Shown here: one piece after another, positions 3,293 to 26,978 of the stretch
Position numbering within the stretch: the first letter of the stretch is position 1
Layout of the letters: each line of letters starts with the position of its first letter
Origin: Schaalia odontolytica
GTDB lineage: Bacteria > Actinomycetota > Actinomycetes > Actinomycetales > Actinomycetaceae
DNA length: 32,000 bases
Direction: 5' to 3'
NCBI RefSeq assembly: GCF_005696695.1
Contig: NZ_CP040006.1
Location: 1,830,001 to 1,862,000, forward strand
Position numbers and translations under genes: made by a program
The notes under the pieces: model-generated
Told to the model about the DNA's origin: nothing
Database searches by the model: none
What the model saw: the letters and a program-made list of their open reading frames with translations, nothing else

Positions 3293-3338
3293 GGGGTTCT
3301 CCTATTGATCATCCGATGATGGTTGGCAGTGGCCTCTA

Positions 3339-5400: not shown

Positions 5401-5426
5401 TTCACAACGACTAGCGTCAACCTCGG

Positions 5427-6206: not shown

Positions 6207-6211
6207 GGAGA

Positions 6212-9676: not shown

Positions 9677-9737
9677 GGGGTCCTCACAGGTATCGCGTAA
9701 ATGGTTACTTCTATAGTGTCACGATAATTGCCAGCGC

Positions 9738-9752
9738 TCAACCACTTGGTTA
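9738..9752 (-). promoter_or_regulatory. Conserved 15-bp element upstream of FReD1 (TCAACC-N3-TGGTTA on the plus strand)
   Basis: TCAACCACTTGGTTA lies 62-76 nt upstream of the FReD1 ATG. The same pattern, TCAACCGAATGGTTA, lies 65-79 nt upstream of the FReD2 ATG. On the coding strand its 3' end reads TTGA(G/T)C, which is -35-like. Confidence 0.35.
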
Positions 9753-9785
9753 GGAGGAGGTGGGAGTCGTTTACCACATACAAGT

Positions 9786-9812
9786 CAACCCCTGCCAAAA
9801 CGGCAGGGGTTG
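9786..9812 (-). terminator. Hairpin between the two FReD paralogs (terminator-like)
   Basis: CAACCCCTGCC (9786-9796) pairs with GGCAGGGGTTG (9802-9812) around a 5-nt loop. It lies about 90 nt past the FReD2 stop. The T-tail on the minus strand is weak (ACTTGTATGT). Confidence 0.4.
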
Positions 9813-9902
9813 GACCTGTCAACACGATTCACGAGCTGGATCGAACCATTTTCACTGGCTCACACCTCGCGCGAACTCGAGCGGAGAAGAACGATTCTTC
9901 CC

Positions 9903-12900: not shown

Positions 12901-13358
12901 GCCTGGTCCTTGACCGGCTCGTTGTTGAGGAGCTCGGTGACGGACTTGTTGGAGAGCTGAACGACCTCGAAGTCATCGGAGGTCCGCGAGCGAGAGGTCA
13001 ACTTCGCAGGATCGCCCTTGCCGCCGCTCCAGGATTCCCATCCTTCACGGCCGCGGCCGATCAGGACCCAGCCGCCGCCATCTGTCGTCTGGTCACAAAA
13101 GAACTGGGCGGGGTGATCCATCGCAGGAGTCTGGAGCCAGTAGGCGCCATCCGCTGCCTCAGGATTCCGCTGCTTAATGTCCCAGCACGACGCGGCTGCA
13201 GTCGCGGCGCTCGAACCGTCGCGAACAATAGCCTGACCGGGTGCCGAATCTCCCTGACCTGCACCAACAGCGTGAGCCATCGGAGCGAGCGCGAGGGAAG
13301 CGCAGGCGACAATCGGCGCAGTTGCAAGGATTGCAAGGCGCGAAATCGCAGAAGCCAT
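9903..13358 (-). CDS. Secreted multidomain protein (FReD2), paralog of 6212-9676 with the same architecture
   Basis: The ORF is colinear with FReD1. Shared blocks include an identical FFCDQTTDGGGWVLIGRGREGWE, GNIQVQAF.Q.GSTMYVGGNFTGV, SCHCSD, ILRDDRPIAT and DDGAVVY(V/I)NG. The start is set at the ATG at 13358 (MASAISRLAIL..., signal peptide ending AHA, GAAAGG upstream) rather than the ORF-track Met at 13394, which has no SD. Confidence 0.85.
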   Translation of the reverse strand: MASAISRLAILATAPIVACASLALAPMAHAVGAGQGDSAPGQAIVRDGSSAATAAASCWDIKQRNPEAADGAYWLQTPAMDHPAQFFCDQTTDGGGWVLIGRGREGWESWSGGKGDPAKLTSRSRTSDDFEVVQLSNKSVTELLNNEPVKDQADGVRVMRSWSASGRSYQTVDLQFPKMTDFVWPFKMAHPVNIQLDKGGWRSGLMWGLTGYDNEWNGLQTYPSARITGWKTGWGYGALTANWTGDVTSATSYFHKSGLTVFPYAEAYVRPRISSDSAAFARIPDEGLSASTVSGVVSQYAAKTSWGVSGNLNGSVREGNIQVQAFAQVGSTMYVGGNFTGVKQGEKGAEISSRGLAAFDVATGDFTGQTFDFNAQVKALLALPDGRLLVGGDFTRVNGEAHSGTVVINPSTGQIDPSWDLQVINALRGGAVSVRALAYYDGNVYMGGSFTHLSGGGRTKVYARNAGRVGLDARPDRSWNPEISGSVQAVGVSEANSAFYAGGHFTTAHGNQRAWYAAKFSTEPGAALDAGFNFEPSSATAGKYQQTIATAGNRVYVGGSEHSLFGYDTATNQRVSGAMTFSNGGDLQATTVSAKGVIYGSCHCSDSTYQDMYVWSMNGSWSRVDEIKWVGAWDAATGESLKWTPFELSSRRKTGAWALTSDNYGNLWVGGDFTLSHTDATRTQWNGGFARYDNRDNVAPEAPSYLRSSASNDSTVTLAWEGVADAVSYEILRDDRPIATSETTTVEVPRGGENRYFVRAVDAEGNRSATTAVYAAPAPGQVDASNPFLLEADATWNYRADASAAPENWAQASFDDSAWPTGAAPLGYGDSAITTQIATKGSRPVTTYYRTHFQVADAKGLKGINVKYLADDGAVVYINGVEVDRTRMGAGTVSYTTRADAAPNFAAASASQSEIFVPASALKTGDNVIAVETHVNYLRTATVSMQASIFRVDGTPDDNSSVPADRSTQPTDATQPINAASVKSGTVIQTGDEWNYWTSTEAPASDWATTGSFQSWNRGSGPIGWGDSGAATALDIAKKDRAITYYFARDIDLGAITPNTSLTVKVRADDGVVLRVNGKVIDTKRMSDGNITHTTYANSAVSAAKAASDLLEVTIPASLLTSGVNRIGVEEHLNYKGSPSMTFDLNATLVK

Positions 13359-13422
13359 GACACGACCTTTCGGAGGAACGGAAACTTGTTGCATAAATAA
13401 TTACACAACAATCCCCATCAGA

Positions 13423-13437
13423 TCAACCGAATGGTTA
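13423..13437 (-). promoter_or_regulatory. Conserved 15-bp element upstream of FReD2 (partner of 9738-9752)
   Basis: TCAACCGAATGGTTA. It has the same TCAACC-N3-TGGTTA pattern and nearly the same distance to the start codon as the copy upstream of FReD1. Confidence 0.35.
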
Positions 13438-13473
13438 ACTCAAACTTTCACAGGTGCACCACGCACCGCATTC

Positions 13474-14961
13474 CTACCCCCGATGACGCCTCGCCAGGGA
13501 CCCAAGTCCCGACAGGTGCAGACGATCCCTAAACGCCCAGCAAACACAGGCGAAAACCAGGACCGAGAGCGCCGAGCCACCAATGGTCGCAACGAAAGAA
13601 TCGCGCCCCAGCCACCATGCTATACACCCGCCCGGAATCACCGCAGATACGCCCACAACCAGAATCGGCTTGACCACTTCCGACAATTTCGGTGTCACAC
13701 CGATAAACCGCGAGACCTGAACGGTCGCCATGGTCGCGTCAAGCACCATGCACACGGCCCAGACGATCGCCGCAGCGACCATTCCTCCGCGAGGAATAAA
13801 GATGACGTTACCCACAACGTTGAGGGTAAGGACCACGATCTTGTTGACCGCTGCCCACCCGGAGCGTCCACTCATGATGAGCAGAGAGTGAATGTTTCCC
13901 GCCATGAAAGTCACGATGGAGCCGATGCACAGGACCACGAGGACGTTCGCGCCGGGAGCGAAGCCGTCACCGAGGATGCGCATGAGCGCGGGCGCGTAGA
14001 TCGCCATGAGGGCGTAGATCGGGGCGGCGAACAGGACAAGCCAGATCGAGGCCGTGCTGTAGAGGTCACGCAGCTCCTTCGTCTTACCCTGGTGCAGGAG
14101 TTTGGAGAACTGCGGGGAGACGACGACCCGCAAAGCCGTGTCGACGACCATGCCCGCCTGAATGAAGCGAATGGCGCCACCGTAGATGCCCGAGGCCGCA
14201 TCGCCCGCCAGGAGACCGACGAGGAGGACGTCGAGCCACTGCAGCGCCTGCTCGAGGCCGGCGGTGAGGGTGCGAGGAAGCGCGAAGGACACGACCTGAC
14301 GACGCCGCTGCGCACTTGGCCAGCGGCCCACCGAGTCGGCCGCCGAGGGCATGTGTCGCAGCAGCAGCCACCACGCGGCGACGAGGACAACGACGAAGGG
14401 CAGCGCCCAGGCGACCGAGACGAAGGCCAGCGACCCGGTGAACGCAGCCGCGAGCGCAACGAGGAGCGGGCGCAGGCCGGGCAGCAGCAGGTTCTGAATG
14501 AGGACGTACTCGCGCATGTTGCCGAGCGCCCGCAGGGCGGCGGATGCGACCAGGGTGAGGGCGCCGATCGGCACGAACCACAGGACGGCCCGGGTGGATG
14601 CCGCCACCTCGGCGTTCCAGATCAGGGGGGCCACGGCCTCGAGAATGAGGACGCACACGGTGGATACGCCCACCGTCAGGGAGGCCATGAAGGACAGGGT
14701 CGCGCGGATCTCTTCGGGAGCATCCAGGGACAGGCGAGGCATCAGGTAGATGGCGGTGGAGTCGAGGCCCACCTTGGCCAGGGCCATGACGATCGCGAAG
14801 ACGCCGGTCGCCTGGGTGACGATACCGGCTCCCTCGGCGCCCAGCATGCGCGACAGGATGATCGTGAACGCGAAGCCCAGGACCGCCGAGGCGGCCGCTC
14901 CGACGAAGCCAACGATGCCCCCGCGCGCGAGGGAACGCCTGGCTTGATTTGCCTCACTCAT
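13474..14961 (-). CDS. Polysaccharide/oligosaccharide flippase (Wzx, MOP superfamily)
   Basis: 495-aa ORF, highly hydrophobic with about 12-14 predicted helices. The N-terminus (..ARGGIVGFVGAAASAVLGFAFTIILSRMLGAEGAGI) is typical of polysaccharide biosynthesis (Wzx-type) proteins. GGGAAGG sits upstream of the ATG. Confidence 0.8.
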   Translation of the reverse strand: MSEANQARRSLARGGIVGFVGAAASAVLGFAFTIILSRMLGAEGAGIVTQATGVFAIVMALAKVGLDSTAIYLMPRLSLDAPEEIRATLSFMASLTVGVSTVCVLILEAVAPLIWNAEVAASTRAVLWFVPIGALTLVASAALRALGNMREYVLIQNLLLPGLRPLLVALAAAFTGSLAFVSVAWALPFVVVLVAAWWLLLRHMPSAADSVGRWPSAQRRRQVVSFALPRTLTAGLEQALQWLDVLLVGLLAGDAASGIYGGAIRFIQAGMVVDTALRVVVSPQFSKLLHQGKTKELRDLYSTASIWLVLFAAPIYALMAIYAPALMRILGDGFAPGANVLVVLCIGSIVTFMAGNIHSLLIMSGRSGWAAVNKIVVLTLNVVGNVIFIPRGGMVAAAIVWAVCMVLDATMATVQVSRFIGVTPKLSEVVKPILVVGVSAVIPGGCIAWWLGRDSFVATIGGSALSVLVFACVCWAFRDRLHLSGLGSLARRHRG

Positions 14962-14974
14962 GATTAACCTTCCC

Positions 14975-14990
14975 GCTACCGCGCGGTAGC
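14975..14990. promoter_or_regulatory. Perfect 16-bp palindrome in the 59-bp divergent wzx / 15021 intergenic region (candidate operator)
   Basis: GCTACCGCGCGGTAGC is its own reverse complement. It is flanked by direct TAACCT copies at 14964 and 14999. Confidence 0.35.
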
Positions 14991-15020
14991 CTTTCTCTAT
15001 AACCTACCGATGGGATACAC

Positions 15021-15674
15021 ATGGACTTCATCAACTCGCTCTCCCCTGCCCGCAAGAAGAGCCTGCTGGCAGCCGCAATTCTCCTCATCATCGCGCTCGT
15101 CATCGCCGGCTTCCTGCGCCTGACGGGCTCCTCTGAGACGGATGCGGCCGCCTCCGCGGCGTCCGGCGCGCAGAGCGCCGAGGAGGACCCGCAGTCCGAC
15201 ATCCCACAGTCCGTCGCGAAGACCATCACCCCGCAGTCGGGCGGGCCCGCAAACGAATCCGGTTCGCTGGCCACGGACGCCGAGGCCGCCGGACAGGCCA
15301 CCTTCGTCATGAACACCCTGTGGGACGCGTACACGGACCCCGAGCAGGCTCGTGCGACCGACCTGTCCTCCGTACTCACCGCCTCGGCGCTGGAGGAGTT
15401 CGACGCGCAGGCTCTCGAGTGGACGAGGGACGGCACCCACACCACCGGCTCACCCACCCTCGAGGACGTGCACATCCTCAGCGATGACGGTGCCGGAAAC
15501 GTCACGGTCTCGGCGTGCGTCGATTCTTCCAACGTTCGCGTCCTCAACGACGCGGGAACTGCGCTGACGGACGACACGACCATGACCCGCGCCCTCACCT
15601 ATTTTCTGTTTGTGAAGGACGGCGGCGCGTGGAAGCTGTCCGGCTTCTCGTTCCCCGACGACCCGACTTGTTGA
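15021..15674 (+). CDS. Hypothetical membrane-anchored extracytoplasmic protein
   Basis: 217-aa ORF. One N-terminal TM (LLAAAILLIIALVIAGFL), a low-complexity acidic/Ser-Ala linker, and a ~130-aa C-terminal globular region. No family was recognised. It is the only plus-strand gene inside the locus, and its SD is weak. Confidence 0.55.
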   Translation: MDFINSLSPARKKSLLAAAILLIIALVIAGFLRLTGSSETDAAASAASGAQSAEEDPQSDIPQSVAKTITPQSGGPANESGSLATDAEAAGQATFVMNTLWDAYTDPEQARATDLSSVLTASALEEFDAQALEWTRDGTHTTGSPTLEDVHILSDDGAGNVTVSACVDSSNVRVLNDAGTALTDDTTMTRALTYFLFVKDGGAWKLSGFSFPDDPTC

Positions 15675-17112
15675 GTCGAGCAAGCATGTGAGTGGCAAAA
15701 GCCCCGTCGTTCGCGGCGGGGCTTGTCCATTGCCCCATGCGCACCGCGCGCTGGGCGCGGACGGTCCCGGCGACGCTACCGGCGCTCGCGCGGCCGTCGC
15801 GCTCGACCTCGGCGCGCTTGATCGGATCGCTCTCCTCCTCCAGGTGGCGCGACAGGAGCGCCACCGCGACAACGGAGATCATGAGGCCGGTGTTCATGCC
15901 GTAGTAGAACTGCTCCACCAGGGTCGCCAGGATGATGCCGCCCAGGATCGAGCCGTACACGTCCGTGGCGCGCCAGATGCGCGGGAACATGCGCAGGAAG
16001 AAGGCGAGGAACAGCGCCAGGCCAACCAGGCCGTAGGAGAAGATGACCGTCCAGAACTGGCCCTGCGTGCCGAGAGACGGCAGCCACGGCGAGGCCGAGG
16101 GGCGCGGGGCGCCGAAGCCCAGGAGCGGGGACTGCTGGAGCTCATAGAGCGTCTCGAGGTAGTTGGAGGCGCGGTCTTCCGTCGAGGAGGAGGCCGCGAC
16201 GCGCTCAAGGAGCGACTGGGAGGCCGGCGTGGCCAGCCACGCGATCACGCCCACGACGATGGCCGCAACGATACCCAGGACGGTACGCCAGGCTCCCGCG
16301 CGCAGGCGCTGGAAACCCACCCACACGACGATAACAATGAGGCCGATGTACATGCCGCGGTTGAGCGTCGCGGCTGCCGGAATGACCGACAGAGCGCACA
16401 CGGCGGCCACGATGAAACGCCACTTGGAGCGCTCGCGCCACAGCACGTACGCGAAGACGAGCGCGAGCGGGAAGATCAGCGAGTAGACGTTACCGTAGGT
16501 GTTGGAGTAGATGAAGGGGGCCGACGGGCGCGGGTCGGAGAGGATCCACGACGACGGGTTCCACTGGGTGGTCGCGCGCTTCGTGAACTCTTTGACGAAG
16601 TCGTTGGAGTGCAGGGCGCGCGGCACCAGGTAGTACATGAGCGTCTTGAAGCGCAGCGTCGGCGCCGCCATGGCGATGAAGCCGCCGATGGTGGTCGACG
16701 CCAGGAAGCCCCACATCGTGCCGGTAATCGTGCGCACGCTCAGGGACTTGCGTGCGTTGAAGGCGTAGACCGCGAAAATAGCTGGCGAGAGCTCCAGCAG
16801 GAAGCGATAGAACGCGCCGATGACGCGCCCGCCCGTGTCGAGCATGGTCATCGAGGCCAGCACCCACGCCAGGAAGAACACCCACAGGATGGATCCGGGC
16901 GGGAAGCGCAGGCCGTGTCGGCCGATCATGAACACGAGCATGATCGATGCGAACAGCGGCCACATCAGATCACCGGAGCCGAGAACCCACCACAGGAAGT
17001 ACGCCGAATAGGCCACGACGAAGGGCCACGCAGGCAGATCCTGCGCGTCCTCTCGTAGCGGCCCAATTTGGGCGGGGGCGGGTTTGGCCCAGAGTCCTCG
17101 GCGTGGGCTCAC
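15595..17112 (-). CDS. O-antigen polymerase/ligase-like polytopic membrane protein (Wzy-type)
   Basis: 505-aa ORF with about 10-12 hydrophobic helices and a larger loop, in the Wzy position of a Wzx/Wzy locus. Its start ATG overlaps the upstream GT2 stop (ATGA). The basic, non-hydrophobic C-terminal ~90 aa overlaps the convergent gene. Confidence 0.7.
   Translation of the reverse strand: MSPRRGLWAKPAPAQIGPLREDAQDLPAWPFVVAYSAYFLWWVLGSGDLMWPLFASIMLVFMIGRHGLRFPPGSILWVFFLAWVLASMTMLDTGGRVIGAFYRFLLELSPAIFAVYAFNARKSLSVRTITGTMWGFLASTTIGGFIAMAAPTLRFKTLMYYLVPRALHSNDFVKEFTKRATTQWNPSSWILSDPRPSAPFIYSNTYGNVYSLIFPLALVFAYVLWRERSKWRFIVAAVCALSVIPAAATLNRGMYIGLIVIVVWVGFQRLRAGAWRTVLGIVAAIVVGVIAWLATPASQSLLERVAASSSTEDRASNYLETLYELQQSPLLGFGAPRPSASPWLPSLGTQGQFWTVIFSYGLVGLALFLAFFLRMFPRIWRATDVYGSILGGIILATLVEQFYYGMNTGLMISVVAVALLSRHLEEESDPIKRAEVERDGRASAGSVAGTVRAQRAVRMGQWTSPAANDGAFATHMLARLNKSGRRGTRSRTASTRRRPSQTENR
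15699..15724. terminator. Bidirectional-looking terminator hairpin just after the 15021-15674 CDS
   Basis: AAGCCCCG (15699-15706) pairs with CGGGGCTT (15717-15724). An A-tract lies upstream and TTGTCC downstream on the plus strand. On the minus strand it is followed by TTTTGCC. It lies inside the 3' end of the Wzy-like ORF. Confidence 0.45.
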
Positions 17113-18452
17113 GCGTTGCCGTTCCCTTCGCCGGTCGTCTCCGTCGCGGACGAGGCCTGGGCCTCCTCAGCGCTGCTCGGTGCGGTCACGCTATCCTGCG
17201 CGGGGGCCGGCTCGGCCTGGCGCGGGGCGCCAAGCTTGTTGCGCTTGCGCGACGACAGGTAGAGGAAGGGACCCTCGAGGAAGCCCTTGATCTCGGACTT
17301 GGTGAGCGAGCCGGGCACGTCCTCGTCGGTGCCGGCGACGCGAGCGCCACCGAGCTTGACGCGGTTGAGGACGCCGGGCACACGGGTCGCCAGCGTGCCG
17401 AGCACGGAGGGTTTGGCGATGATCGCCTTCGTCAGGAGCGCCGCCATACCCGAGCCGTTGCCGCGGATCTGCTTGTCCAGGCCGGCCTCGTCGACGCGGT
17501 GACGGTGGTGCACGAGAGCGTCGGGCGTGTGGACGATGACGTCACCCGTGGCCAGGATGCGCGCGAACATGTCGAGGTCCTCGCCGCCGCGCGTCGAGGT
17601 GCCGGCGCCCAGCGCCGGATCGAAGGGACCGACCTCCATGAGGACGTCGCGACGCATGGCCATGCACACGCCCGCACCCACGCGGGCCGTCGTGATCGGG
17701 AACAGCGGGCCGCCGTCCCCCTTCTCGCCCAGGACCTCCAGGCCCTCGGGGATATCGCCGACGCACCACACGCGCGGGGACATGTCCTTGGGGAAGCCGC
17801 CGCGCGACTCGAACCACCGCTGGGGCGCGTAGCGCTGCTCCAGGGGCAGCGCGATACCCGTCGTGGCGGCCACGTACGGCGAGGCCGTGAACGGGTCGAT
17901 CATGGCGGTCAGCCAGTGCGGGTCGACGATCGCGTCGTCATCCGTGAAGACGATGACTTCGCCGCGAGCAGCCAGCACGCCGCGGTTGCGGGCGCGAGAC
18001 AGGCCCGGACGGGAGGCAGAGACGATGCTCAGGCGCGTATCGTCGATACCCGCGAGCTTCTCCCGAGTCAGGCCCGTGTGCGGAGCGTTATCCACCACGA
18101 CGAGCGTGAAACGCTGGTGATCCTGGGCCAGGATGGCGCGCACGGCATCCTCGAGCATGTCGCACGAGCCGACCGTGCACATGACGACGGTCGCGTCCAC
18201 GTCGGCGCCAGCGCCCTCTTCCCAGCCGCGCGCAGGGGCCGGTTCGACCTCGAGCACGCGCGGATCGGTCTCCGGATGGTCCGTGCCCTCGATCTCGACG
18301 AACGCCGAGTTACGGCCGTTATCGCGCACGAGCACGAGCGCTCGCGGATCCGACGGGTCGCCCGAAATCAGCTGGGAGACGCGCGCAGTGCGGTCAACGT
18401 GCCAGATCGAGGCGGCCTTGTGGTCGGCTGCGGTGGTCTCCTCGGCGGTCAT
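17109..18452 (-). CDS. Family 2 glycosyltransferase with an N-terminal ~95-aa extension
   Basis: VVMCTVGSCDMLEDAVRAILAQ....LVVVDNAP, SRARNRGV and VIVFTDDDAIV (DxD) are GT2 hallmarks. ATGA overlaps occur at both ends. Confidence 0.85.
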   Translation of the reverse strand: MTAEETTAADHKAASIWHVDRTARVSQLISGDPSDPRALVLVRDNGRNSAFVEIEGTDHPETDPRVLEVEPAPARGWEEGAGADVDATVVMCTVGSCDMLEDAVRAILAQDHQRFTLVVVDNAPHTGLTREKLAGIDDTRLSIVSASRPGLSRARNRGVLAARGEVIVFTDDDAIVDPHWLTAMIDPFTASPYVAATTGIALPLEQRYAPQRWFESRGGFPKDMSPRVWCVGDIPEGLEVLGEKGDGGPLFPITTARVGAGVCMAMRRDVLMEVGPFDPALGAGTSTRGGEDLDMFARILATGDVIVHTPDALVHHRHRVDEAGLDKQIRGNGSGMAALLTKAIIAKPSVLGTLATRVPGVLNRVKLGGARVAGTDEDVPGSLTKSEIKGFLEGPFLYLSSRKRNKLGAPRQAEPAPAQDSVTAPSSAEEAQASSATETTGEGNGNA

Positions 18453-19831
18453 TTCTTGCCCTTCTTCGAGGAAGCCTTGGCGTCCGACTTCTTGGAATCG
18501 GACGTGTCTTCCGTTTCCTTGGTAGGCGTGGATTCAGCGGCATCGACCTCAGGTTCCGAGGTCTGGGCGGACCCAGCCGGTGCCTCGTCCTTGGGGACAA
18601 TGACCTCGGCAGACTGAGCGGGAGCGGTCGGAGCGGAGGCGGGCGCGGCCACCTGGTCGCCCAGGTAGATCATGCCGTTCACCTCGCGGTTGATGATCGC
18701 GAGCTCGTCGAGCAGGTGGTGCAGCTTCTTCAGATCGTGACCCTTACGCACGGCGACGAGGACGTGGCGCGAGGGGCGGACCTCGTCGAGGAGCGAGGCG
18801 AGGGGCTGGTTGATGTCGATGAGGCGCGGCGCGGGCACACGGGTCTCAGCCAGCGAGGCGGACAGGACGCGATGCAGGTCGCGGGCCTGCGGGTCAGATG
18901 CGTCGACGATCAGGTCAACCCAGTGATCGCGGTCGATCGCCATCGCGAGCATGCGGGTGGGGGCGAGCCACGGCTCGGGGGCACCCTCCTCGGCACTCCA
19001 CACGGGCAGCGCCGTCAGGTCGGCGAGCTGCGTGGGCGAGATCAGGGAGCGCGAGCGGGTCTCACGGATGAGGACCAGGACCAGGCCCGCGAAGACGCCA
19101 ACGACGGTCGAGATCAGGATCAGTCGCACCTTCGAGGGCGAGACCTCGTCGCTCGAGGCCGCGGCCGGGGTGATCACGCGGCCGGCGGTGGCGTGGTAGG
19201 GGGCAAGCTGCTCGGCATCCTTCGCAAGCTTCGTCAGCTCGGTGCGAATCTCGGAGGCGCGCGGGTTGTCCTTCGTGTTGCCGTCCTCGTCGACCAGGGG
19301 GGTCAGGCCGGCGAGCTCGGTCTCCAGAGCCTGGATCTGCTCGTTGATGCCGGCGGCCATCTCGTCGGCGCGCTGCTCGACGAGGGCGGTGCGCTCGGTC
19401 AGGTAGGCGTTGGCGATCGCGTCCGCGGCGTCAACGGCCTGCTGGCGCGTGGGAGCCACGTACTCGATCTTGACGATCGTGCCGTTCGTGTCGCCGGACA
19501 CCTCCATGTTGGAGCGAAGCTCCTCGGCGGTGACGCCATTGCCGAGGCGCGCGGCTGCGACGTCGAGGACGGCGGCGGACTTCGCGATACCCTGCTCGGT
19601 CACCATGTCCGTCGTATTCGACAGGGAGGCGCGCACGGCGGGAGCCGGGGTGATCGACGGAGACGTCACGGTCATCGACACGGCCGCCGAGTGCGACGTG
19701 GGGACACCAAAGGCGGCTGCGACACCTACGACCAGGCCGGCCACGGTCCCCGCAACGATCGAGGTCCAGCGGCGTGCCAGCGCGTGACGAAGGATCTGCT
19801 GGCCGCCCGTGGGCGGAGGGGTCAGGATCAT
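18449..19831 (-). CDS. Wzz-like polysaccharide co-polymerase fused to a degenerate (P-loop-less) BY-kinase-like domain with a Lys-rich tail
   Basis: TM1 (IVAGTVAGLVVGVAAAFGV), a periplasmic coiled-coil region, and TM2 (LILISTVVGVFAGLVLVLI). This is followed by a ~150-aa domain (LIVDASD ... VLVAVRKGHDLKKL..LLDEL......NGMIYL) with no GxxxxGK[ST] seen by eye. The start is set at the ATG at 19831, which has AAGGAG 8 nt upstream and an ATGA overlap with the GT2 stop. Confidence 0.7.
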   Translation of the reverse strand: MILTPPPTGGQQILRHALARRWTSIVAGTVAGLVVGVAAAFGVPTSHSAAVSMTVTSPSITPAPAVRASLSNTTDMVTEQGIAKSAAVLDVAAARLGNGVTAEELRSNMEVSGDTNGTIVKIEYVAPTRQQAVDAADAIANAYLTERTALVEQRADEMAAGINEQIQALETELAGLTPLVDEDGNTKDNPRASEIRTELTKLAKDAEQLAPYHATAGRVITPAAASSDEVSPSKVRLILISTVVGVFAGLVLVLIRETRSRSLISPTQLADLTALPVWSAEEGAPEPWLAPTRMLAMAIDRDHWVDLIVDASDPQARDLHRVLSASLAETRVPAPRLIDINQPLASLLDEVRPSRHVLVAVRKGHDLKKLHHLLDELAIINREVNGMIYLGDQVAAPASAPTAPAQSAEVIVPKDEAPAGSAQTSEPEVDAAESTPTKETEDTSDSKKSDAKASSKKGKK

Positions 19832-20736
19832 GACTGTTCTCCTTGGAGGTGAGAGCGCACCCACGCGGCGCGCGCATTGAGCCGGCGCTCGAGAGCGCGG
19901 CGAGACGATGCGGGTCGAGACGCGACCCCCTGAGTGTAGACCTGCACGAAGCGGTCGAGCTCACGCTCGGCCTCGTCGCGAGGAAGCGAAACGAGCGAGA
20001 CCAGGCGCGGCAGCTCCTGGCCCGTCAGAGATACCGACAGGTCAGCGAAGGCCTGGGCCTGCTCGGGATTCTTCCACGAATCCGAGCGCCACGAGGCGTT
20101 TCCGGTGACCTGGCCCGGGTGGATGCGGTACAGCAGACCCCAGGGCGCAATACGGCGAATGCGACCGCCCGCGGATGCCACGCGCATCCACAGGTCGTAG
20201 TCCTCGGCGGGAACGCTGCGGTAGCCGCCGACGCGGTCCATGATCTCGCGGGTGGCGAGCATGGTCGGGTGGCACACGGGGTTGGTGAGCAGCAGATGCC
20301 AGCCCATGTCCTCGGGCGTGATCTCGTAAGGCATGCGGGGCACCGGGCGGGAGCCACGCAGCTCGATCATCTGCGTGAAGACCATGTCGTCGCCGCGCTC
20401 GATGGCACGCATCGTGCGCTTGAAGCGGCCCTTGAGAGACACGTCGTCGGCGTCCATACGCCCCACGAGGCGCGAGTCGGTGCGCTCCATGAGCTGAGTG
20501 AGGACGCGAGAGACGCCGCCCTCGCCCGGGGTGATGTCCTCGATGCGCAGGCGAGGATCGACCACTCCCCCACGCGACGCGCCGCGGATCGCCTCGCCGA
20601 CCGTCGAATCCGACGACGAGTCGTTGCCGACGACCAGCTCGGCGTCACGCGGCATGGCCGCCAGCGTCGAGGCCACGGCGCGTGTGATCGTGCCCGCCGC
20701 GTTGCGCGCGGGCAGCAGGACGGACAGCTCAGGCAC
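19828..20736 (-). CDS. Family 2 glycosyltransferase
   Basis: LSVLLPARNAAGTI..AV.S, LVVGNDSSSD and RMDADDVS (DxD). The start is set at the GTG at 20736 (GGGGAG upstream), overlapping the upstream stop by 8 nt. The ORF-track Met at 20910 lies inside the upstream gene. Confidence 0.8.
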   Translation of the reverse strand: MPELSVLLPARNAAGTITRAVASTLAAMPRDAELVVGNDSSSDSTVGEAIRGASRGGVVDPRLRIEDITPGEGGVSRVLTQLMERTDSRLVGRMDADDVSLKGRFKRTMRAIERGDDMVFTQMIELRGSRPVPRMPYEITPEDMGWHLLLTNPVCHPTMLATREIMDRVGGYRSVPAEDYDLWMRVASAGGRIRRIAPWGLLYRIHPGQVTGNASWRSDSWKNPEQAQAFADLSVSLTGQELPRLVSLVSLPRDEAERELDRFVQVYTQGVASRPASSRRALERRLNARAAWVRSHLQGEQS

Positions 20737-21511
20737 GGGACTCCCCCTGCGTGGCGGCCTGCTTAGCGGCCGCGTCCAGGGCGCGCAGGTCGCGGAACCG
20801 GCGACGCAGCGAAATCGAGGAGTGCGCGACCGCGATAACTGCGAGGAACGTGTAGAGCACCATGAAAGGAACGCCGAAGCCCCACAGCACGAAGGACCAG
20901 CACAGCACACCCGGGTCGGTGGGCAGCAGCACGAAGGAACGCAGGTTCCCGCCGCGCGTCTGCTTGCGGCCCGCCGCGCGCACGAACTGCTCGGCGAGGA
21001 TCTGGCTCATGAACTGGCCCGACGTTACCCATCCGTAGACGAGCGCGACGACGGCCAGCCACCACGACTCGGGGCGGTAGATCATGACTGCGGCGGCGGT
21101 GCAGAAGTGGATCGCGGGGGAACGGAACGCGTCGGCGACGTGGTCCACCCACTCGCCCGTCTTCGACGAAGCGCCCGTGACACGCGAGACCTGGCCATCC
21201 GCGGAGTCGAACATGAAGCCGACCGCAAGAGCCGTGCCGACGATGAGGCCCGTCCACCACGCGGGTTCGAGCGCGACGAGGACGATGAGGCCGAGCGTCG
21301 AGAAGCACACGGAGATGAAACTGACGAAGTTCGGGGTCCAGCCAAAAGCCGCGCAGGCGGCTGCCACGACGCGCGCAGCGCCGCGGTTCACCCAGCGCAT
21401 GTACGCGGGGACGCCCGCGCCCGGCTTCTGCGCGGCAGCCAGCGCGGAGCGGTAAGCGCTAAAACGAGTCCCCCACGAGGAACCCGGCTCGAGCACGACG
21501 GGCAGGCTCAC
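20729..21511 (-). CDS. CDP-alcohol phosphatidyltransferase-family membrane protein
   Basis: DSADGQVSRVTGASSKTGEWVDHVAD fits D-x2-D-G-x2-(A/S)-R-x8-G-x3-D-x3-D. There are multiple TM helices. An ATGA overlap links it to the upstream cytidylyltransferase. Confidence 0.85.
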   Translation of the reverse strand: MSLPVVLEPGSSWGTRFSAYRSALAAAQKPGAGVPAYMRWVNRGAARVVAAACAAFGWTPNFVSFISVCFSTLGLIVLVALEPAWWTGLIVGTALAVGFMFDSADGQVSRVTGASSKTGEWVDHVADAFRSPAIHFCTAAAVMIYRPESWWLAVVALVYGWVTSGQFMSQILAEQFVRAAGRKQTRGGNLRSFVLLPTDPGVLCWSFVLWGFGVPFMVLYTFLAVIAVAHSSISLRRRFRDLRALDAAAKQAATQGESRA

Positions 21512-22005
21512 TGCGCCTCCCCTTCCGCCGCCTGGTCCGCTTCCTTCGCTGGGGCCTCGTCGGAGAAGTCCTCGGGGGCGATGAAACGGCGCAGCTTCGT
21601 CGACGACGTCGACGGCGTGTACGGCAGGTAAACGACGCGCGCGCCGACCTCGGCCATCTCGGCCTCGAGCGCGGCGCCCTTCGGAGTGTCCTTCCAGTCG
21701 TCACCCTTGAAGAGGACGTCGAAAGGCTGGAGACGCCACGCGAGGCGCTTGTCCTGGTCCAGGTCGACGACAACCGCATCCACGAAACGCAGCGACGACA
21801 CGAGGTCGCAGCGCTCCTTGAGCGGGATGACGGGGGCGCGGCCCTTCATACGGATGAGGGCCTCGTCCGAGGTCACGCCGACGACGAGGCGATCGCAGCG
21901 CTCACGCGCGGCGCGCAGAATGTTGAGGTGTCCCTGGTGGAACATGTCAAAACCCCCGGGCACGTAGCCGGTGATGGGGGTGCGTTGCTGAGTCGTTTCG
22001 TCCAC
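21508..22005 (-). CDS. Cytidylyltransferase, TagD-like (glycerol-3-phosphate cytidylyltransferase family)
   Basis: 165-aa ORF. GYVPGGFDMFHQGHLNILRAA (HxGH nucleotidyltransferase motif) with a TagD-like size and layout. Confidence 0.8.
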   Translation of the reverse strand: MDETTQQRTPITGYVPGGFDMFHQGHLNILRAARERCDRLVVGVTSDEALIRMKGRAPVIPLKERCDLVSSLRFVDAVVVDLDQDKRLAWRLQPFDVLFKGDDWKDTPKGAALEAEMAEVGARVVYLPYTPSTSSTKLRRFIAPEDFSDEAPAKEADQAAEGEAQ

Positions 22006-23130: not shown

Positions 23131-23592
23131 GCGTTCCAGTCTAACTAGGTTCATACCCGCGAACGAGGCAGGGGCAGGGTTTGCGGGAGATGCCACGGGG
23201 TTACGGGGTGGGGTTGTTGCTGGGCGGGGTTGCGTTGCTACATTGCTGCGGTCGGGGTTGCGGTTTCGCGCTCGTTTCATGAGCCGCCGAGGCTAGCACC
23301 CTAGTTTCACGCGCGTTTCACGCACGCCTAGCCTGCTCCTCCCCCAAACGCCTGTGGCCACGCACCCAAGCCGGAGCCAAACTACGCCGGCTGATACAAC
23401 CGCTGGCACGTCGCCCCACTGAGCGATACCCATCGACCTCTCCTATCGCACTCCACGCTGCAGAACTGCGACACCAGGCACCCGCATGAACATTAGCTTG
23501 ACACCAAAGCCCCACAAGCTTTCATCTCGGGACCAATTCCCTGGACAGGCTGCTACGATGCGAAGCAGTGACCCCAGAGCAAAGGAGCCAGC

Positions 23593-25326
23593 ATGGTCCC
23601 CGCCGACGATGACCCCAAGGACACCCCCGAGGTCGACAGCAGCGCATCCACGAAAGAGTGCAAGAGCAGTCATCTCACCCCCATGCCCGGCTGCCTGATG
23701 CACTGGTGGATACCGTTCGTATTAGCCGCCTTTTTGTTCTTAGGCAGCATGTTCATCACCTCCATCTGGGGCTCAGCGACTTTCGACGAGATCATGCATG
23801 CGATACAAGACTGCCCCAAGCGCTGGCCATTCCACATGCGCACACCATCTCGCGAGGAAATCGAAGTATGCCTAACCATCACGGCGGCCGGCTTCGCATT
23901 CTCGGCTTGGCAGCAGCGGAGCCACGACAACGCCATCAGGGAAGAAGAACGAACGAAGGCGCAGCAGCAAGCCGAAAAGGAACAAAAGAGACAAGAGCAT
24001 AATCGCCTCGAACAGATTGAGCGCGACGAATACTGGAAGCGCCGCGAACATATTCTTCACACACTCGACAGCAACAATCCAGGTATCCGCCTTGCAGCGG
24101 TAAGCCTTCTAGCGGAACTTGCCGATTCAGCCGCACACAGCGGCCAACTCAATCACACTGCACAGCAACAACTCCAACAGCACATCATCAGCACACTTTG
24201 TCTCCAGATGCGCCATGAGGGCCAACTAATCGAATCAGAAGGAACCAAAGAAGATCACATTGGGATTCAGAGCGAAATTCTAGAGGTGATTTTCAGACGA
24301 GTAGATCCTGCCGACCAAAAAGACCTTCTAGCAAATTGGTCTATGGAAGTTTTAAACTTCAGGAACGTTAACTTCTATACCGAATTTAAAATGATCGACC
24401 GTAAGACACAATGTACCATTGTACTAACGGGAGCAGTATTTCACGAAAACGCAACCTTCAGCGGATGCACAATACATAAGCTCGTGTGGCACAAGAGCAG
24501 CTTCATGAAGCAACTCACGTTCCACTCACAACGCAAAGAAAATACACCTGGGACGATAGTTTCACACGACAATTTTCCGAAATATATTAGCTACGGGGAC
24601 TTCAAAGGAATCGCGTTCTGCAAGGACGAGTCCACGGAAGGGATTGACCACAGAATCAACATTCGCGCATCTAACAAATCAGACAGCTCTGACTACGACG
24701 ATATAAATTATCTCAATTTCTCGGAATGCACTTTCCTCCACACAATTAGCACATTTCATAAAGCCTCAAATAGCCCTGTTGCATACCGGAGAACAGAAGG
24801 TAAATCCATATTAGACAAGACACAGCTTCCAGAAAATTACACATGGGGCATACTCCGCATCGAACAAATCAACTACAGCAGCACACCGACGCATGAACGC
24901 GACACAGGCTTAAGATTTGACCGGTGCACATTCGAAAAAGTAACCGTTGACTCAGGACTAACACACTCGAACACGGAATTCACATCATGCTACTTCGCAT
25001 CGCTGGCCTTCATTGCCATCATGACAGCAAATCGATCATCTTCATTCGAGGATCAAGACCACATCATCTTCGAAGATTGCATTTTCGCAATGTCCAGCAA
25101 TTTTAACACCCCAATCAAACTAGTACATGTAACCAACGGCAACAGCGGTCTCATACCACGTACATTCTTTCGACTGAGGGACAATCAGGCACACATTCAA
25201 AATGAGAACGGACAACCAATTTTTCAAACACTAGAATTAACTGGCACCACTATTGGCGAAAGATACTTAAAGATTGGCACAGAAACAAATCACATACCTT
25301 TCGAAGAAAGAAACCCCAGCATATAA
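23593..25326 (+). CDS. Orphan membrane-anchored protein: 1-2 N-terminal TM helices, charged coiled coil, helical segment, degenerate pentapeptide-repeat-like (beta-helix) C-terminal half
   Basis: 577-aa ORF with AAGGAG 7 nt upstream of the ATG. TM at WWIPFVLAAFLFLGSMFITSIWG. Coiled coil at REEERTKAQQQAEKEQKRQEHNRLEQIERDEYWKRRE. IRLAAVSLLAELADS resembles the helix that precedes the repeats in many pentapeptide-repeat proteins. C-terminal units include LNFRNVNF, LTGAVFHENATFSGCTI, LNFSECTF, LRFDRCTF, TEFTSCYF and IIFEDCIF. GC falls to about 40%. Confidence 0.7.
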   Translation: MVPADDDPKDTPEVDSSASTKECKSSHLTPMPGCLMHWWIPFVLAAFLFLGSMFITSIWGSATFDEIMHAIQDCPKRWPFHMRTPSREEIEVCLTITAAGFAFSAWQQRSHDNAIREEERTKAQQQAEKEQKRQEHNRLEQIERDEYWKRREHILHTLDSNNPGIRLAAVSLLAELADSAAHSGQLNHTAQQQLQQHIISTLCLQMRHEGQLIESEGTKEDHIGIQSEILEVIFRRVDPADQKDLLANWSMEVLNFRNVNFYTEFKMIDRKTQCTIVLTGAVFHENATFSGCTIHKLVWHKSSFMKQLTFHSQRKENTPGTIVSHDNFPKYISYGDFKGIAFCKDESTEGIDHRINIRASNKSDSSDYDDINYLNFSECTFLHTISTFHKASNSPVAYRRTEGKSILDKTQLPENYTWGILRIEQINYSSTPTHERDTGLRFDRCTFEKVTVDSGLTHSNTEFTSCYFASLAFIAIMTANRSSSFEDQDHIIFEDCIFAMSSNFNTPIKLVHVTNGNSGLIPRTFFRLRDNQAHIQNENGQPIFQTLELTGTTIGERYLKIGTETNHIPFEERNPSI

Positions 25327-25668
25327 CGCGCACTAAGAGATTAACGATTACACTTCACAATCGCGACAGACACCAACTGCTCCATCTTTACGCTGCACCA
25401 ACCGACGAGCAGCAAGTTGAGCATCTGCAGATTTCAATTGAGAACGATTGAACCAATCACCTTAAGGCACAACTTTCACATTTTCAGATTTGACCATCAT
25501 ATCAATCACTGCCCACTCCGACACTGTTCGTACACAACAATATGATGCGGTTACACATCACCGCATGCACTTCGATTGCATTAAGTCGAAGTAAACGCAT
25601 CTTAGGTCCCACATACAATATTTTTCGCCTTTCGCAAAAGACGAATAGTTTGCGTGTACGATTTCAGG

Positions 25669-26175
25669 ATGCAGATTCGAATCGCATCCCCTGGCGACAT
25701 CGCATTCATCGGGAGCGCGTATGTGCATGCCCGCGCGTTTATGCAGGCGAATGGGAATGCGACTCAGTGGCCCTTCGGATACCCGAGCCACATTGACGCT
25801 GAGGAAGACATCGCGCACGGGCACTGTTTCCTTGTGGCTGACGATGAGGGGCCACTTGCTGTTTTCACCCTCGCTCCAGGACCGGATGAGACGTATGCCG
25901 AGATCGACGGCGCATGGCATTTCGAGGCTGAGTACCACGTGATTCACCGCGTGGCAGCAGTGCGCGGGCATGGGGTCGCGCGGGCAATTTTCAACTTTGC
26001 GGCTGAGCACGCTAACTACCTGCGTTGCGACACCCACGAGAACAACGCCCCGATGCGGCGCGCGCTCGAATCCTTCGGATTCCAAGAGTGCGGCACAATC
26101 ACCGTTACCAACGACACGGAGCGCGTTGCCTATGACTGGATCAAGGACAGCTCTACCGGCGCAGCAGCCAACTAG
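25669..26175 (+). CDS. GNAT-family N-acetyltransferase
   Basis: MQIRIASPGDI..., HRVAAVRGHGVARAIFNFAAEH (acetyl-CoA binding region) and LRCDTHENNAPMRRALESFGFQECG are typical of small GNATs. The start is ambiguous: ATG at 25669 is preferred over GTG at 25654. Confidence 0.8.
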   Translation: MQIRIASPGDIAFIGSAYVHARAFMQANGNATQWPFGYPSHIDAEEDIAHGHCFLVADDEGPLAVFTLAPGPDETYAEIDGAWHFEAEYHVIHRVAAVRGHGVARAIFNFAAEHANYLRCDTHENNAPMRRALESFGFQECGTITVTNDTERVAYDWIKDSSTGAAAN

Positions 26176-26212
26176 TTCCACCTCCTCGACCACACTGAGC
26201 TACCGAACAATC

Positions 26213-26318
26213 TCGCACGTAATTCCTAGACACCACAAATTTGCGATACCCCAGAAAGCGCGGAATTTCAACGTTCTGATTTCAAATTCTGAAGGACTCT
26301 GAATAGAATTACGTGCGA
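26213..26318. repeat. 106-bp AT-rich unit bounded by 12-bp perfect inverted repeats (MITE-like or large hairpin)
   Basis: TCGCACGTAATT (26213-26224) is the exact reverse complement of AATTACGTGCGA (26307-26318). The line 26261-26320 within it counts about 37% GC. Confidence 0.4.
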
Positions 26319-26330
26319 AATTTTGAGAGC

Positions 26331-26392
26331 TGCACCCGTTATGGAGCATTGCACCCGATCAGAACGGGTGCAATGCTCACTGATCGGGTGCA
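26331..26392. repeat. Compound nested hairpin built from four TGCACCCG/CGGGTGCA units
   Basis: TGCACCCG (26331-38) -ttatg- GAGCATTGCACCCG (26344-57) -atcagaa- CGGGTGCAATGCTC (26365-78) -actgat- CGGGTGCA (26385-92). The inner 14-bp stem is perfect and the outer 8-bp stem is perfect. Confidence 0.6.
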
Positions 26393-26657
26393 CGCCCTCA
26401 TCGACGACAAGCTCTATCGCGGATGCGCTTCCTACGCGGAACGGACACCACGACTAAACCCCCTCCCACACACCAACGCTCCAGCCAAGGCCACTCACGA
26501 TGCCACTCACCGACGCACGGCAGGCATCCGACCGCAATCACACTTGCTCCTAACTGGTGTAATGCTCCCTTACTGGCGCAGGGCTGCCCGGCACGGCTCG
26601 GCTGGAATCTCGTTGGAGTAGCTATGGAGCAGGCCGCGCCGCGCGCAGGCTTGTTGC

Positions 26658-26720
26658 GCGGCAGCATTGCACTACTTAGCGCAGCATTGCACTGGATAGT
26701 AAGCAGTGCATTGCTGCCGC
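26658..26720. repeat. GCAGCATTGCACT repeat group: two direct copies 20 bp apart plus one inverted copy
   Basis: GCAGCATTGCACT occurs at 26661 and 26681. AGTGCATTGCTGCCGC at 26705-26720 matches the reverse complement of GCGGCAGCATTGCACT (26658-26673) at 15 of 16 positions. It shares the GCATTGCAC core with the 26344-26378 hairpin. Confidence 0.6.
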
Positions 26721-26912
26721 ACCTAGTGGATCGCTCCATGCGCAGGGCTGCCGCACGTCACCGAGGCACCACGACCGCGCCACACTCACAGACGAACACC
26801 CCAGCAAGCCCGCGGCCCCAAGCCACGACCACCCCAAGCCACAACCGCAGCCCTCACGCAGGCACACACCGCCCCCGCGGCCATAACCCCCAACAACACC
26901 CCGCATACATGC

Positions 26913-26948
26913 GGGCGCGCGCCCGGCCAATCAGCCGGGCGCGCGCCC
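26913..26948 (-). terminator. Strong GC hairpin downstream of mdh (terminator-like)
   Basis: GGGCGCGCGCCCGGC (26913-27) pairs with GCCGGGCGCGCGCCC (26934-48), a perfect 15-bp stem around a CAATCA loop. It lies 30 nt past the mdh stop. There is no clear U-tract. Confidence 0.5.
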
Positions 26949-26978
26949 TTCCCACCAACCGCCACGAGGGCGGTCGCC

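Follow-up and report, generated by a model that had tools for sequence, protein, structure and literature searches.

The DNA analysed here is a 32-kb stretch of the genome of the oral bacterium Schaalia odontolytica (contig NZ_CP040006.1), referred to below as the window. It contains a 577-codon open reading frame (ORF) at positions 23593 to 25326 of the plus strand, for which we use the name gene X, and directly downstream a gene for a GNAT acetyltransferase. The two genes lie between purU and mdh. The gene X protein of the window is encoded in GCA_001462375.1 / LLVT01, the assembly of strain XH001, which is the host of the Saccharibacteria epibiont TM7x (PMC4742689). Very probably the two genes constitute a clade-specific, anciently resident module, in which a membrane-tethered protein carries an exchangeable beta-solenoid cassette, and many allelic types of this cassette are kept in the population by recombination.

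The ORF starts with ATG and is preceded, 5 nt upstream, by the strong Shine-Dalgarno sequence AAGGAG; the ORF and its Shine-Dalgarno sequence had been described in an earlier note, made from the sequence of the window, and both were confirmed. Chance alone would keep the frame open with a probability of about 1e-12 over the whole gene and, at cassette base composition, of about 7e-9 over the 338 cassette codons. The frame is kept open in 139 full-length relatives. The Shine-Dalgarno sequence was conserved in 12 of 13 aligned species loci, and the sequence 'GCTTGACACC', which surrounds a TTGACA hexamer, was nearly invariant in the same proportion of loci. Closer to the gene, the columns of TGCTACGAT were invariant in all 13 loci, and an invariant leader of ~30 nt comes next. 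Judged by the actinobacterial -10 consensus, TGCTACGAT is a putative extended -10 element of the TGn-TAnnnT type, and TTGACA may be its -35 or part of a second promoter. The upstream non-coding block was better conserved than the coding sequence, which argues for expression of gene X in all species. A riboswitch or small RNA controlling the locus was not indicated: there was no match to an Rfam family near gene X.

Database searching showed that gene X is not an orphan, as had been assumed. A word-indexed search of 5.8 billion proteins returned 498 relatives at E≤1e-3, and an exhaustive phmmer search of 1.84 billion cluster representatives yielded 70 clusters at 50% identity, every match running through the N-terminal ~340 residues. 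In a scan of one genome per species the gene was present in 17 genomes. Barring a single contig labelled Saccharibacteria, the carriers are Schaalia, Pauljensenia and 'Actinomyces sp.' of the odontolytica group, and cluster-representative and profile searches found no relatives of the N-terminal module outside this clade. The exceptional contig (locus L012, CAUTLS010000056.1, 3.6 kb, from a 'Candidatus Saccharibacteria' metagenome-assembled genome, MAG) is misbinned, because it carries the end of a Schaalia purU, a gene X allele, the GNAT gene and the start of mdh; low GC and co-abundance plausibly led to the misbinning. An origin of gene X in Saccharibacteria, suggested by the similar GC and this one match, was thus ruled out.

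In every locus with enough context the gene order is purU (divergent), X, GNAT, mdh and a CDF transporter gene. This slot is shared by the 17 species-level genomes and all metagenomic loci and is kept even in relatives with 30% identity. The flanking purU and mdh are 85-96% identical between loci (blastn). A phage or plasmid origin was ruled out, as none of 50,697 phage and 72,556 plasmid records contained a relative of gene X. The survey of homologous neighbourhoods, proposed in the earlier note as a check for a defence function, revealed no link to defence islands, prophages, phages, plasmids or other mobile elements: in all loci gene X occupies the interval between two core genes, purU and mdh.

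The GC content falls from ~0.68 in the surroundings to 0.43-0.46 over gene X (0.477 for the whole gene, 0.429 for the 338 cassette codons). Among 17 alleles the N-terminal module had a GC of about 0.53 and a third-position GC (GC3) of 0.58, the cassette about 0.42 (0.42-0.44) and 0.46. The GNAT gene is intermediate (GC 0.60, GC3 0.70); the flanks have a GC of 0.65-0.67, with a GC3 of 0.86-0.92 for purU and mdh. The foreign composition that had been reported is therefore real as far as the low GC goes, but it is a stable property of the locus and not a mark of recent transfer. The low GC is shared by all alleles in every species, always at one syntenic site, so the composition must be old, contrary to the proposed recent acquisition.

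The coding sequence is sharply divided into a conserved and a variable part. In blastn comparisons homology to all other alleles ends at about 24221-24290 and restarts at about 25657-25669, where the GNAT gene begins. In an alignment of 97 sequences the column entropy was 0.5-1.7 bits per 20-residue block over aa 1-235 (minimum at aa 141-180) and 2.1-3.0 bits over aa 240-577. The variable part retains a few near-invariant core residues (W299, F304, P329, C379 and F381) and is therefore one hyper-diverged fold, not a collection of unrelated domains. At ≥50% identity about 42 tail types were distinguished among the 139 full-length relatives; the counts of fusions and inserts given below refer to 42 types, the Pfam and PADLOC scans of types to 44. 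Cassette type was uncoupled from strain relatedness (Spearman 0.15, p 0.13): genomes with purU 96-97% identical can have tails that are 20-28% identical, and genomes at 94-95% share one type. Between the window allele and protein P0009 dS was 0.64 in the N-terminal module and 0.12 in the cassette, which indicates a recombination mosaic.

Within the cassette type of the window the dN/dS ratio (omega) of the N-terminal module was 0.19-0.39 and that of the cassette 0.26-0.71; values of about 1 were confined to the final 177 residues in the most closely related pair. Omega below 1 shows that the alleles are functional and constrained and, along with the promoter, leader and Shine-Dalgarno sequence conserved across species, supports the earlier claim that the gene is functional. 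The diversity is between old allelic classes and is not the product of ongoing hypermutation. The window lacks template repeats, silent cassettes and any signature of a reverse transcriptase, and diversification by a diversity-generating retroelement or from silent cassettes was rejected within it, as no direct or inverted repeat involves gene X. Variation between alleles spans whole domains and is not adenine-specific.

The 170-340 bp spacer between gene X and the GNAT gene contains no ORF. In other strains it is a landing pad for insertion sequences (IS): locus L016 has an IS30-type transposase at 7900-8913, and L023 has ISL3-type transposases, one full and one partial copy, at 7592-9683. 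In L027 ('Actinomyces sp. ICM47' MAG, 6001-7555) a frameshift within the charged spacer splits gene X (124 + 410 aa), and the 5' part of the GNAT gene is missing; either both genes of the module have decayed together or the assembly is faulty. Such insertions and the frameshifted copy, a GC of 0.43-0.48 in a 0.68 genome and the lack of a Pfam domain are what could be expected of a recently acquired foreign single-gene island, or of a decaying, functionless, fast-evolving ORF. Both seem very unlikely in view of the same site and composition in 17 species-level genomes and all metagenomic loci, the absence of phage and plasmid relatives, the conserved regulatory region, the omega values and the minute probability of a chance open frame.

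The partner gene codes for a member of the GNAT superfamily: the protein scored above the cutoff of the Pfam Acetyltransf_1 model (23.0 vs 20.7 bits) and has an acetyl-CoA motif of the Q/RxxGxG/A type (RGHGVA, aa 99-104). The closest solved structure is PDB 2pc1 (E 6.6e-19), and phrog_36270 matched with E 1.6e-31; among GNATs of this kind, similar in sequence to the partner, no characterised member was found. Only two phage matches were obtained, both distant. TacT, AtaT and KacT chains were missing from the PDB matches at E≤1, and no small ribbon-helix-helix (RHH) ORF adjoins the GNAT gene; the arrangement thus differs from that of GNAT/RHH toxin-antitoxin pairs such as TacAT and AtaRT.

Family members of ~750 aa continue beyond the solenoid with a homologous fused GNAT (50% identity to the window GNAT in the C-terminus of P0045, E 7e-55). 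This fusion occurs in 29 of 181 proteins and in 11 of the 42 cassette types. The fused-GNAT loci examined still hold a stand-alone GNAT gene. In three loci the two copies were 41-48% identical, so the duplication is old. By the Rosetta-stone argument the fusions suggest that X and GNAT are functionally linked, and the description of gene X as a single-gene module does not hold. The constant same-strand adjacency of the two genes and the atypical GC3 of the GNAT gene (0.70 against 0.86-0.92) point the same way. No transmembrane (TM)-like segment separates the solenoid from the fused GNAT (maximum Kyte-Doolittle value, KD, 1.51). Since the GNAT needs acetyl-CoA, the solenoid is probably cytoplasmic, in agreement with the positive flank ahead of the first TM helix. 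In TM7x-associated XH001 the GNAT transcript was modestly lower (log2 -0.74, false discovery rate 2e-4; PMC10768705).

Polymorphic toxins combine a conserved N-terminal module for delivery with a C-terminal toxin that varies, and we considered whether gene X codes for such a protein, with the GNAT as immunity or neutralising protein. The conserved-N/variable-C layout with recombination is compatible with this. In one strain (L005, 14565-17608) a 1526-aa polymorphic toxin with T7SS_signal and ADP-ribosyltransferase domains, accompanied by three small ORFs, is inserted just past the CDF transporter gene, and S. odontolytica counters epibionts with Esx effectors (PMC13622651). In other strains the same site holds YhfC and Exo_endo_phos genes, so the region downstream of mdh is variable as well. 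The Pfam scans, however, detected no WXG, LXG or T7SS secretion domain and no trafficking domain, and the variable part is one homologous solenoid fold, not a series of unrelated toxins. The spacer encodes no co-varying immunity protein, and the GNAT is conserved whatever the cassette type. We regard a polymorphic toxin as very improbable.

Table. Features of the window discussed in the text (positions are those of the window)
Feature	Position	Strand	Remarks
Gene X	23593..25326	+	577 aa, membrane-tethered; conserved N-terminal module, hypervariable C-terminal beta-solenoid
TM helix 1 (aa 38-60)	23704..23772	+	KD up to 2.18; AlphaFold2 helix 40-59; net positive N-terminal flank
Loop between the hydrophobic segments (aa 61-90)	23773-23862		long or short form
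Second hydrophobic segment (aa 91-106)	23863..23910	+	CxTIxxAGxAFSxWQQ; putative short TM2 or re-entrant helix
Charged E/K/R/Q-rich helical spacer (aa 107-158)	23911..24066	+	within continuous AlphaFold2 helix 87-158; length varies between alleles
Variable stretch of the spacer (aa 107-140)	23911-24012
Three-helix adaptor (aa 159-237)	24067..24303	+	NPGxRLAAVxLLAELADSA ... LCLQxRHEG ... EH.xIQ; weakly HEAT-like; lowest entropy of the protein
Beta-solenoid domain (aa ~250-562)	24340..25278	+	~14 coils of ~22 residues; degenerate pentapeptide-like faces (LNFSE-CTFLH type)
Exchangeable variable cassette	24225..25655	+	coding sequence of the C-terminal domain and AT-rich spacer
AT-rich spacer	25327..25668	+	GC 0.44, allele-specific; IS landing pad in other strains
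GNAT acetyltransferase (APY09_00555)	25669..26175	+	168 aa from ATG; conserved in all loci; always adjoins gene X on the same strand
TTGACA hexamer	23498..23503	+	possible -35 or second promoter element; conserved upstream of gene X
Putative extended -10 (TGCTACGAT)	23551..23559	+	TGn-TAnnnT type; followed by invariant ~30-nt leader
Shine-Dalgarno AAGGAG	23582..23587	+	5 nt before ATG
Antisense ORF nested in gene X	23872..24060	-	62 aa; apparently APY09_00550; probably spurious
GC-rich segment between GNAT gene and mdh	26176-26978		800 bp; no credible gene; conserved across loci
Cell-wall glycopolymer cluster (APY09_00485-00540)	~4500-22005	-	ends with TagD-like gene adjoining purU
TagA/WecG gene	5427-6215
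Wzx gene	13474-14961
TagD-like gene	21508-22005
Tandem paralog 1	6212-9676	-	1154 aa
Tandem paralog 2	9903-13394	-	1163 aa
ZMP/ZTP riboswitch	3332-3416	-	RF01750, 65 bits, E 1.3e-8
glyA (SHMT)	2009-3292
folD	1098-2006

The conserved N-terminal half of the gene X protein contains two hydrophobic segments, a charged helix and a small helical domain. The strong first TM helix noted earlier, WWIPFVLAAFLFLGSMFITSIWG, was confirmed by its hydropathy over 19 aa; its N-terminal flank has K+R of 2.3 against D+E of 1.1. In AlphaFold2 (AF2) models this helix is followed by a short helix (aa 64-73), a long helix (aa 87-158) and three helices within aa 163-237. The second hydrophobic segment, at the start of the long helix, contains invariant C93, T95, A102, S104, W106, Q107 and Q108 in the 97 sequences. 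The possibility that it forms a second TM helix is weakened by its size, ~15 hydrophobic residues that stay under KD 1.2 in 19-aa windows, although it belongs to the best conserved parts of the protein. The module is dimorphic between the two hydrophobic segments, where alleles have either a long loop (SATFDEIMHAIQDCPKRWPFHMRTPSREEIE) or a short loop (GGHFHWPSADGIS).

The charged helix, NPGIRLAAVSLLAELADS and the beta-rich C-terminal ~330 aa follow each other in the order described in the earlier note. The helix had been taken for a coiled coil. It is indeed highly charged (12 K+R, 12 D+E and 8 Q in 52 aa) and helical, but hydrophobic positions are few, and the length is variable, about -30 to +70 residues relative to the window protein, so that homologs can be up to ~100 residues apart. 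Its sequence suggests a single-helix spacer rather than a heptad coiled coil. Across the family the spacer ranges from ~20 to >120 residues (e.g. P0010). The adaptor that follows is modelled as helices 163-181, 188-210 and 219-237 with a pLDDT above 90. It has three helices only and scored below the Pfam HEAT threshold (12.5 vs 23.5 bits, E 0.19); in the family two of 44 types reached E≤0.01. A profile search with the conserved helical module, meant to reach a wider 'TM-HEAT-pentapeptide' family, matched only fragments of its own family, and the resemblance to 'RLGAIYALERIA'-type proteins put forward earlier is thus no more than a tentative lead.

The C-terminal part is predicted to form a beta-solenoid. 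The full-length AF2 model, built with the family alignment, had a pLDDT of 76 and a pTM of 0.70, and its region 253-561 was all-beta with short, evenly spaced strands. The solenoid modelled alone was likewise all-beta (pLDDT 82, pTM 0.86). The family-wide autocorrelation of hydrophobicity had peaks at lags 2, 5, 11 and 21-22 and was negative at 10 and 15; no lag was significant for the window protein alone. The strand spacing of ~22 residues in both models and the family autocorrelation therefore suggest coils of ~22 residues, each with only about two pentapeptide-like faces. Foldseek searches of the PDB and BFVD with the full-length and the domain-only models gave no match at E≤1e-3 (best E 0.06 and 0.036). 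The top lists consisted almost wholly of right-handed parallel beta-helices, among them a CAP/CARP domain, pectin methylesterases, tailspikes, WceF and autotransporter passengers, and the top matches were three-sided; as none was significant, the lists bear on fold class only. The compatibility with a right-handed beta-helix put forward earlier is thus supported by the AF2 models, and the assignment of the domain to this fold class carries the weight of a prediction. No conserved polar catalytic residues were found in the solenoid (97-sequence alignment). In 23 of 42 cassette types a Cys-rich insert (CxCxxxCxC ... CxC ... CxCxxxC), with up to 19 Cys per domain, is located near window aa ~380-420. 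Metal binding or disulfide formation by this insert is conceivable and would bear on topology. The cassette type of the window is without the insert and has 7 Cys and no CxC.

The pentapeptide-like repeats reported earlier are present as local units, but the window protein remained below the Pfam gathering thresholds of the pentapeptide families (PF00805/PF13576/PF13599) and had no significant periodicity. The best match, Pentapeptide_3 at aa 279-304, reached E 0.11 (13.1 bits vs a cutoff of 27). In the sister cassette types the same model passed in 4 of 44, with a best E of 1.3e-7. Descent of the solenoid from pentapeptide repeats is plausible. These units, the Pentapeptide_3 matches, and the presence of QnrB1 and SV2 luminal domains in the Foldseek list are the grounds on which gene X might be seen as a canonical pentapeptide DNA mimic that guards or regulates DNA gyrase in the manner of Qnr, MfpA or McbG. 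Against it, the 5/10/15/20 periodicity of a tandem pentapeptide array was found neither in the gene X protein nor in the family, QnrB1 ranked 32 with E 1.6, and a membrane tether, an irregular solenoid and extreme allelic diversity are unlike a conserved gyrase-binding surface. DNA mimicry, one of the roles proposed earlier, is highly improbable.

Scans against Pfam, NCBIfam, PADLOC and PHROGs and sequence searches of the PDB, with the single protein and with profiles, found nothing significant for gene X. Weak matches to M11L, E1B-19K, HalA, QcrA, Takeout and CD226 were taken as noise; the HalA match, for example, had E 0.016 and 14 bits vs a cutoff of 250 in NCBIfam. The PADLOC check for a defence function gave no match for the window protein and, among the cassette types, one in 44 (HEAT-ARM_XIII, E 0.0035). 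The results bear on an abortive-infection-type mechanism, in which the solenoid would sense an invader protein and the TM hairpin would oligomerise and damage the membrane, the GNAT being a bystander or regulator. Effectors with two TM segments occur in CBASS-like systems and provide the analogy. The conserved hairpin with its small-xxx-small-type motif (A99, G100, S104), together with the spacer and variable binding domain behind it, would suit such a sensor-effector, as would allelic hypervariability, which is typical of immune sensors, and the intact gene X in L016, where the GNAT gene is broken. The lack of defence-family matches, the fixed core site in all recovered loci, neither sporadic nor mobile, and the lack of phage or plasmid homologs in the records searched all speak against it, and the repeated GNAT fusion would be left unexplained. 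On balance we consider this mechanism unlikely.

The minus-strand region of the window ahead of purU is a cell-wall glycopolymer (CWP) cluster. It includes genes for TagA/WecG, Wzx, Wzy, GT2 glycosyltransferases, GNVR and a CDP-alcohol phosphatidyltransferase and ends with a TagD-like gene (table). TM7x represses the CWP cluster of XH001, and over-expression of the cluster restores binding of the lytic phage LC001 (PMC11032452). The cluster may be the one that is induced by TM7-008 in strain F0309; the same 2026 preprint shows a response of S. odontolytica to Saccharibacteria that is based on the envelope and on Esx (PMC13622651). Order and size of the CWP genes are conserved across the compared loci, and the blastn-aligned part is 84-95% identical.

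This neighbourhood, with gene X two genes away from a cluster that controls phage LC001 binding, raises the alternative that the module belongs to the envelope. Only TM1 would then span the membrane, and the spacer and beta-helix would be exposed outside as a variable surface protein (phage or epibiont receptor, decoy or adhesin); or else the module would tailor or process the CWP, with a glycan-binding beta-helix and the GNAT as a sugar acetyltransferase. The surface chemistry met by phages and Saccharibacteria would vary in consequence. GNATs are commonly sugar N-acetyltransferases, and Actinomyces forms disulfides in exported proteins, which would give the Cys-rich CxC insert of 23 of the 42 types a place. 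The weak TM2, the carbohydrate-active or tailspike-type beta-helices (including WceF) that make up nearly all top structural matches, and the combination of low GC and allelic hypervariability, typical of surface-polysaccharide genes, fit as well. However, in the 11 types with a fusion the GNAT directly follows the solenoid with no TM segment between, and an external acetyl-CoA enzyme is implausible. The gene X protein has no signal peptide or sortase motif, the CWP genes are conserved while X varies, the solenoid lacks conserved polar catalytic residues, and the Foldseek matches (best E 0.06) were not significant. An envelope role is thus rather unlikely, though less so than membrane damage by a sensor-effector.

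The explanation that we tentatively favour, while crediting it with somewhat less than an even chance, is that the solenoid provides, in the cytoplasm and close to the membrane, a surface for recognising a ligand that is not the same for every allele, that it works with the GNAT, and that its diversity is kept by frequency-dependent selection exerted by phages or epibionts. X and GNAT form an old, lineage-specific two-part module between purU and mdh. The N-terminal hydrophobic hairpin would tether X to the cytoplasmic membrane, and the charged spacer of variable length and the three-helix adaptor would hold the ~320-residue solenoid at its cytoplasmic side. Solenoids are typical binding scaffolds. 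Here the solenoid would act as an exchangeable recognition cassette, present in the population in at least 40 deeply diverged versions, which move between strains by homologous recombination anchored in the N-terminal coding sequence and in the GNAT gene. It would bind an allele-specific ligand and either present it to the GNAT at the membrane or regulate the enzyme, and frequency-dependent pressure from phages or Saccharibacteria epibionts might keep the diversity.

Several observations weigh against this explanation. Eight of the 11 fused GNAT types lack a strict Q/RxxGxG/A acetyl-CoA motif. The stand-alone GNAT gene has 77-82% nucleotide identity to that of the window in all loci and does not co-vary with cassette type, and in isolate L016 it is reduced by the IS30 element to its last ~70 codons while gene X is intact. 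The second hydrophobic segment is short, which weakens the predicted topology. Pairwise, region-averaged dN/dS within one type detected no pervasive positive selection. There is neither a match to a defence family nor an island setting. The proximity of gene X to the CWP cluster may be coincidental, because purU intervenes and the CWP genes are not variable. Finally, the gene X transcript is apparently unreported in the published XH001 tables.

A role in conflict, be it phage exclusion or envelope sensing as suggested in the earlier note, is speculative; it has indirect support in the allelic hypervariability and the adjacent CWP cluster. In its boldest form, for which we see only a small chance, X-GNAT would be a new, chromosomally fixed, hypervariable immunity or specificity system of oral Actinomycetaceae: the solenoid would sense phage or Saccharibacteria molecules at the inner face of the membrane and couple this to acetylation, and the allele would contribute to the strain-level host range of epibionts and phages.

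The lack of transcript data has a likely cause in the annotation. A 62-aa ORF nested in gene X on the opposite strand, listed only in the NCBI record, apparently carries the tags APY09_00550 and APY09_RS00540 ('hypothetical protein') and was seemingly annotated instead of X by GenBank and RefSeq. Hendrickson et al. 2023 (PMC10768705, supplementary table) list APY09_00550, a reverse-strand hypothetical, as the sole gene separating purU (APY09_00545) from the acetyltransferase (APY09_00555); at this point one gene is skipped in the numbering of both Prokka and PATRIC. As APY09_00550 matches the antisense ORF, gene X is apparently absent from the master annotation used for XH001 omics and appears to be missing from the XH001 reference annotation. 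Published transcriptome tables keyed to the APY09 tags therefore omit gene X. The APY09_00550 feature showed no significant change of expression with TM7x (PMC10768705), and the XH001 transposon sequencing (Tn-seq) tables have no entry that matches gene X.

Some other features of the window deserve mention. The CWP region includes two tandem paralogs of 1154 and 1163 aa with 68-81% DNA identity over long stretches. They have no solid Pfam domain, only weak DUF5122 beta-propeller and CBM-like matches, and were named 'galactose oxidases' in a PNAS 2024 paper. A ZMP/ZTP riboswitch lies directly upstream of glyA and folD, the classic layout of a folate/purine regulon; purU, another folate gene, is 19 kb away, adjoining gene X. 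The segment between the GNAT gene and mdh contains inverted-repeat self-matches at 26324-26400 and 26913-26948, the latter resembling an mdh terminator; it had no Rfam match.

Among known proteins, gene X is most readily compared with pentapeptide-repeat proteins (PF13576), which likewise have N-terminal membrane segment(s) followed by a right-handed beta-solenoid and similar local A(D/N)LXX-like units (LNFSE-CTFLH in X). Membrane-anchored members such as HglK of Anabaena are among the nearest comparisons. In contrast to these proteins, X fails the family cutoff, has coils of ~22 residues, lacks 10/15/20 periodicity and a significant match to Qnr or MfpA, and its N-terminal module is without homologs beyond the clade. 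To our knowledge neither hypervariability at the population level nor a GNAT partner has been reported for the pentapeptide-repeat family. Right-handed parallel beta-helix proteins, which fill almost all of the Foldseek top 50, share the fold class of the AF2 model; they differ in that no match was significant (best E 0.06, TM-score ≤0.26), X has no conserved catalytic constellation, and these proteins are secreted or virion-borne, whereas X is predicted to be cytoplasmic and membrane-tethered.

The target-recognition domains of type I restriction hsdS and the C-terminal toxin (CT)/immunity cassettes of polymorphic toxins resemble X in evolutionary mode only: a swappable cassette is located between conserved flanks, and its type is, in X, uncoupled from strain phylogeny. 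There is no kinship in sequence or domains, and X has no methylase or restriction partner, secretion domain or co-varying immunity gene, its partner being a conserved GNAT. The fusion of a GNAT to a beta-solenoid membrane protein had no earlier description in the searches made. What is new here are the N-terminal module, the GNAT partner and the unusual population structure, added to a membrane-anchored pentapeptide-like beta-solenoid.

The interest of the locus lies in its host: XH001 serves as model for cultivated Saccharibacteria (TM7x) and for phage LC001, where the determinants of strain-level susceptibility are being sought. With at least 40 ancient cassette types at one position, the gene X locus is expected to be among the most polymorphic protein-coding sites of the species group. 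It lies near the phage-binding CWP cluster, is linked to a GNAT with a TM7x-responsive transcript, and is seemingly off the XH001 annotation. If the module does serve in immunity or specificity, gene X would have been missed by published omics screens because it is apparently unannotated in XH001. Even without a role in conflict, the annotation is corrected, and the proteins related to X are defined as a new family, specific to the lineage and with a clear domain plan. The locus is also an example of a 'foreign' base composition that does not signal recent transfer but is a stable and ancient trait of a resident hypervariable gene. As XH001 is genetically tractable, the hypotheses put forward here are directly testable.

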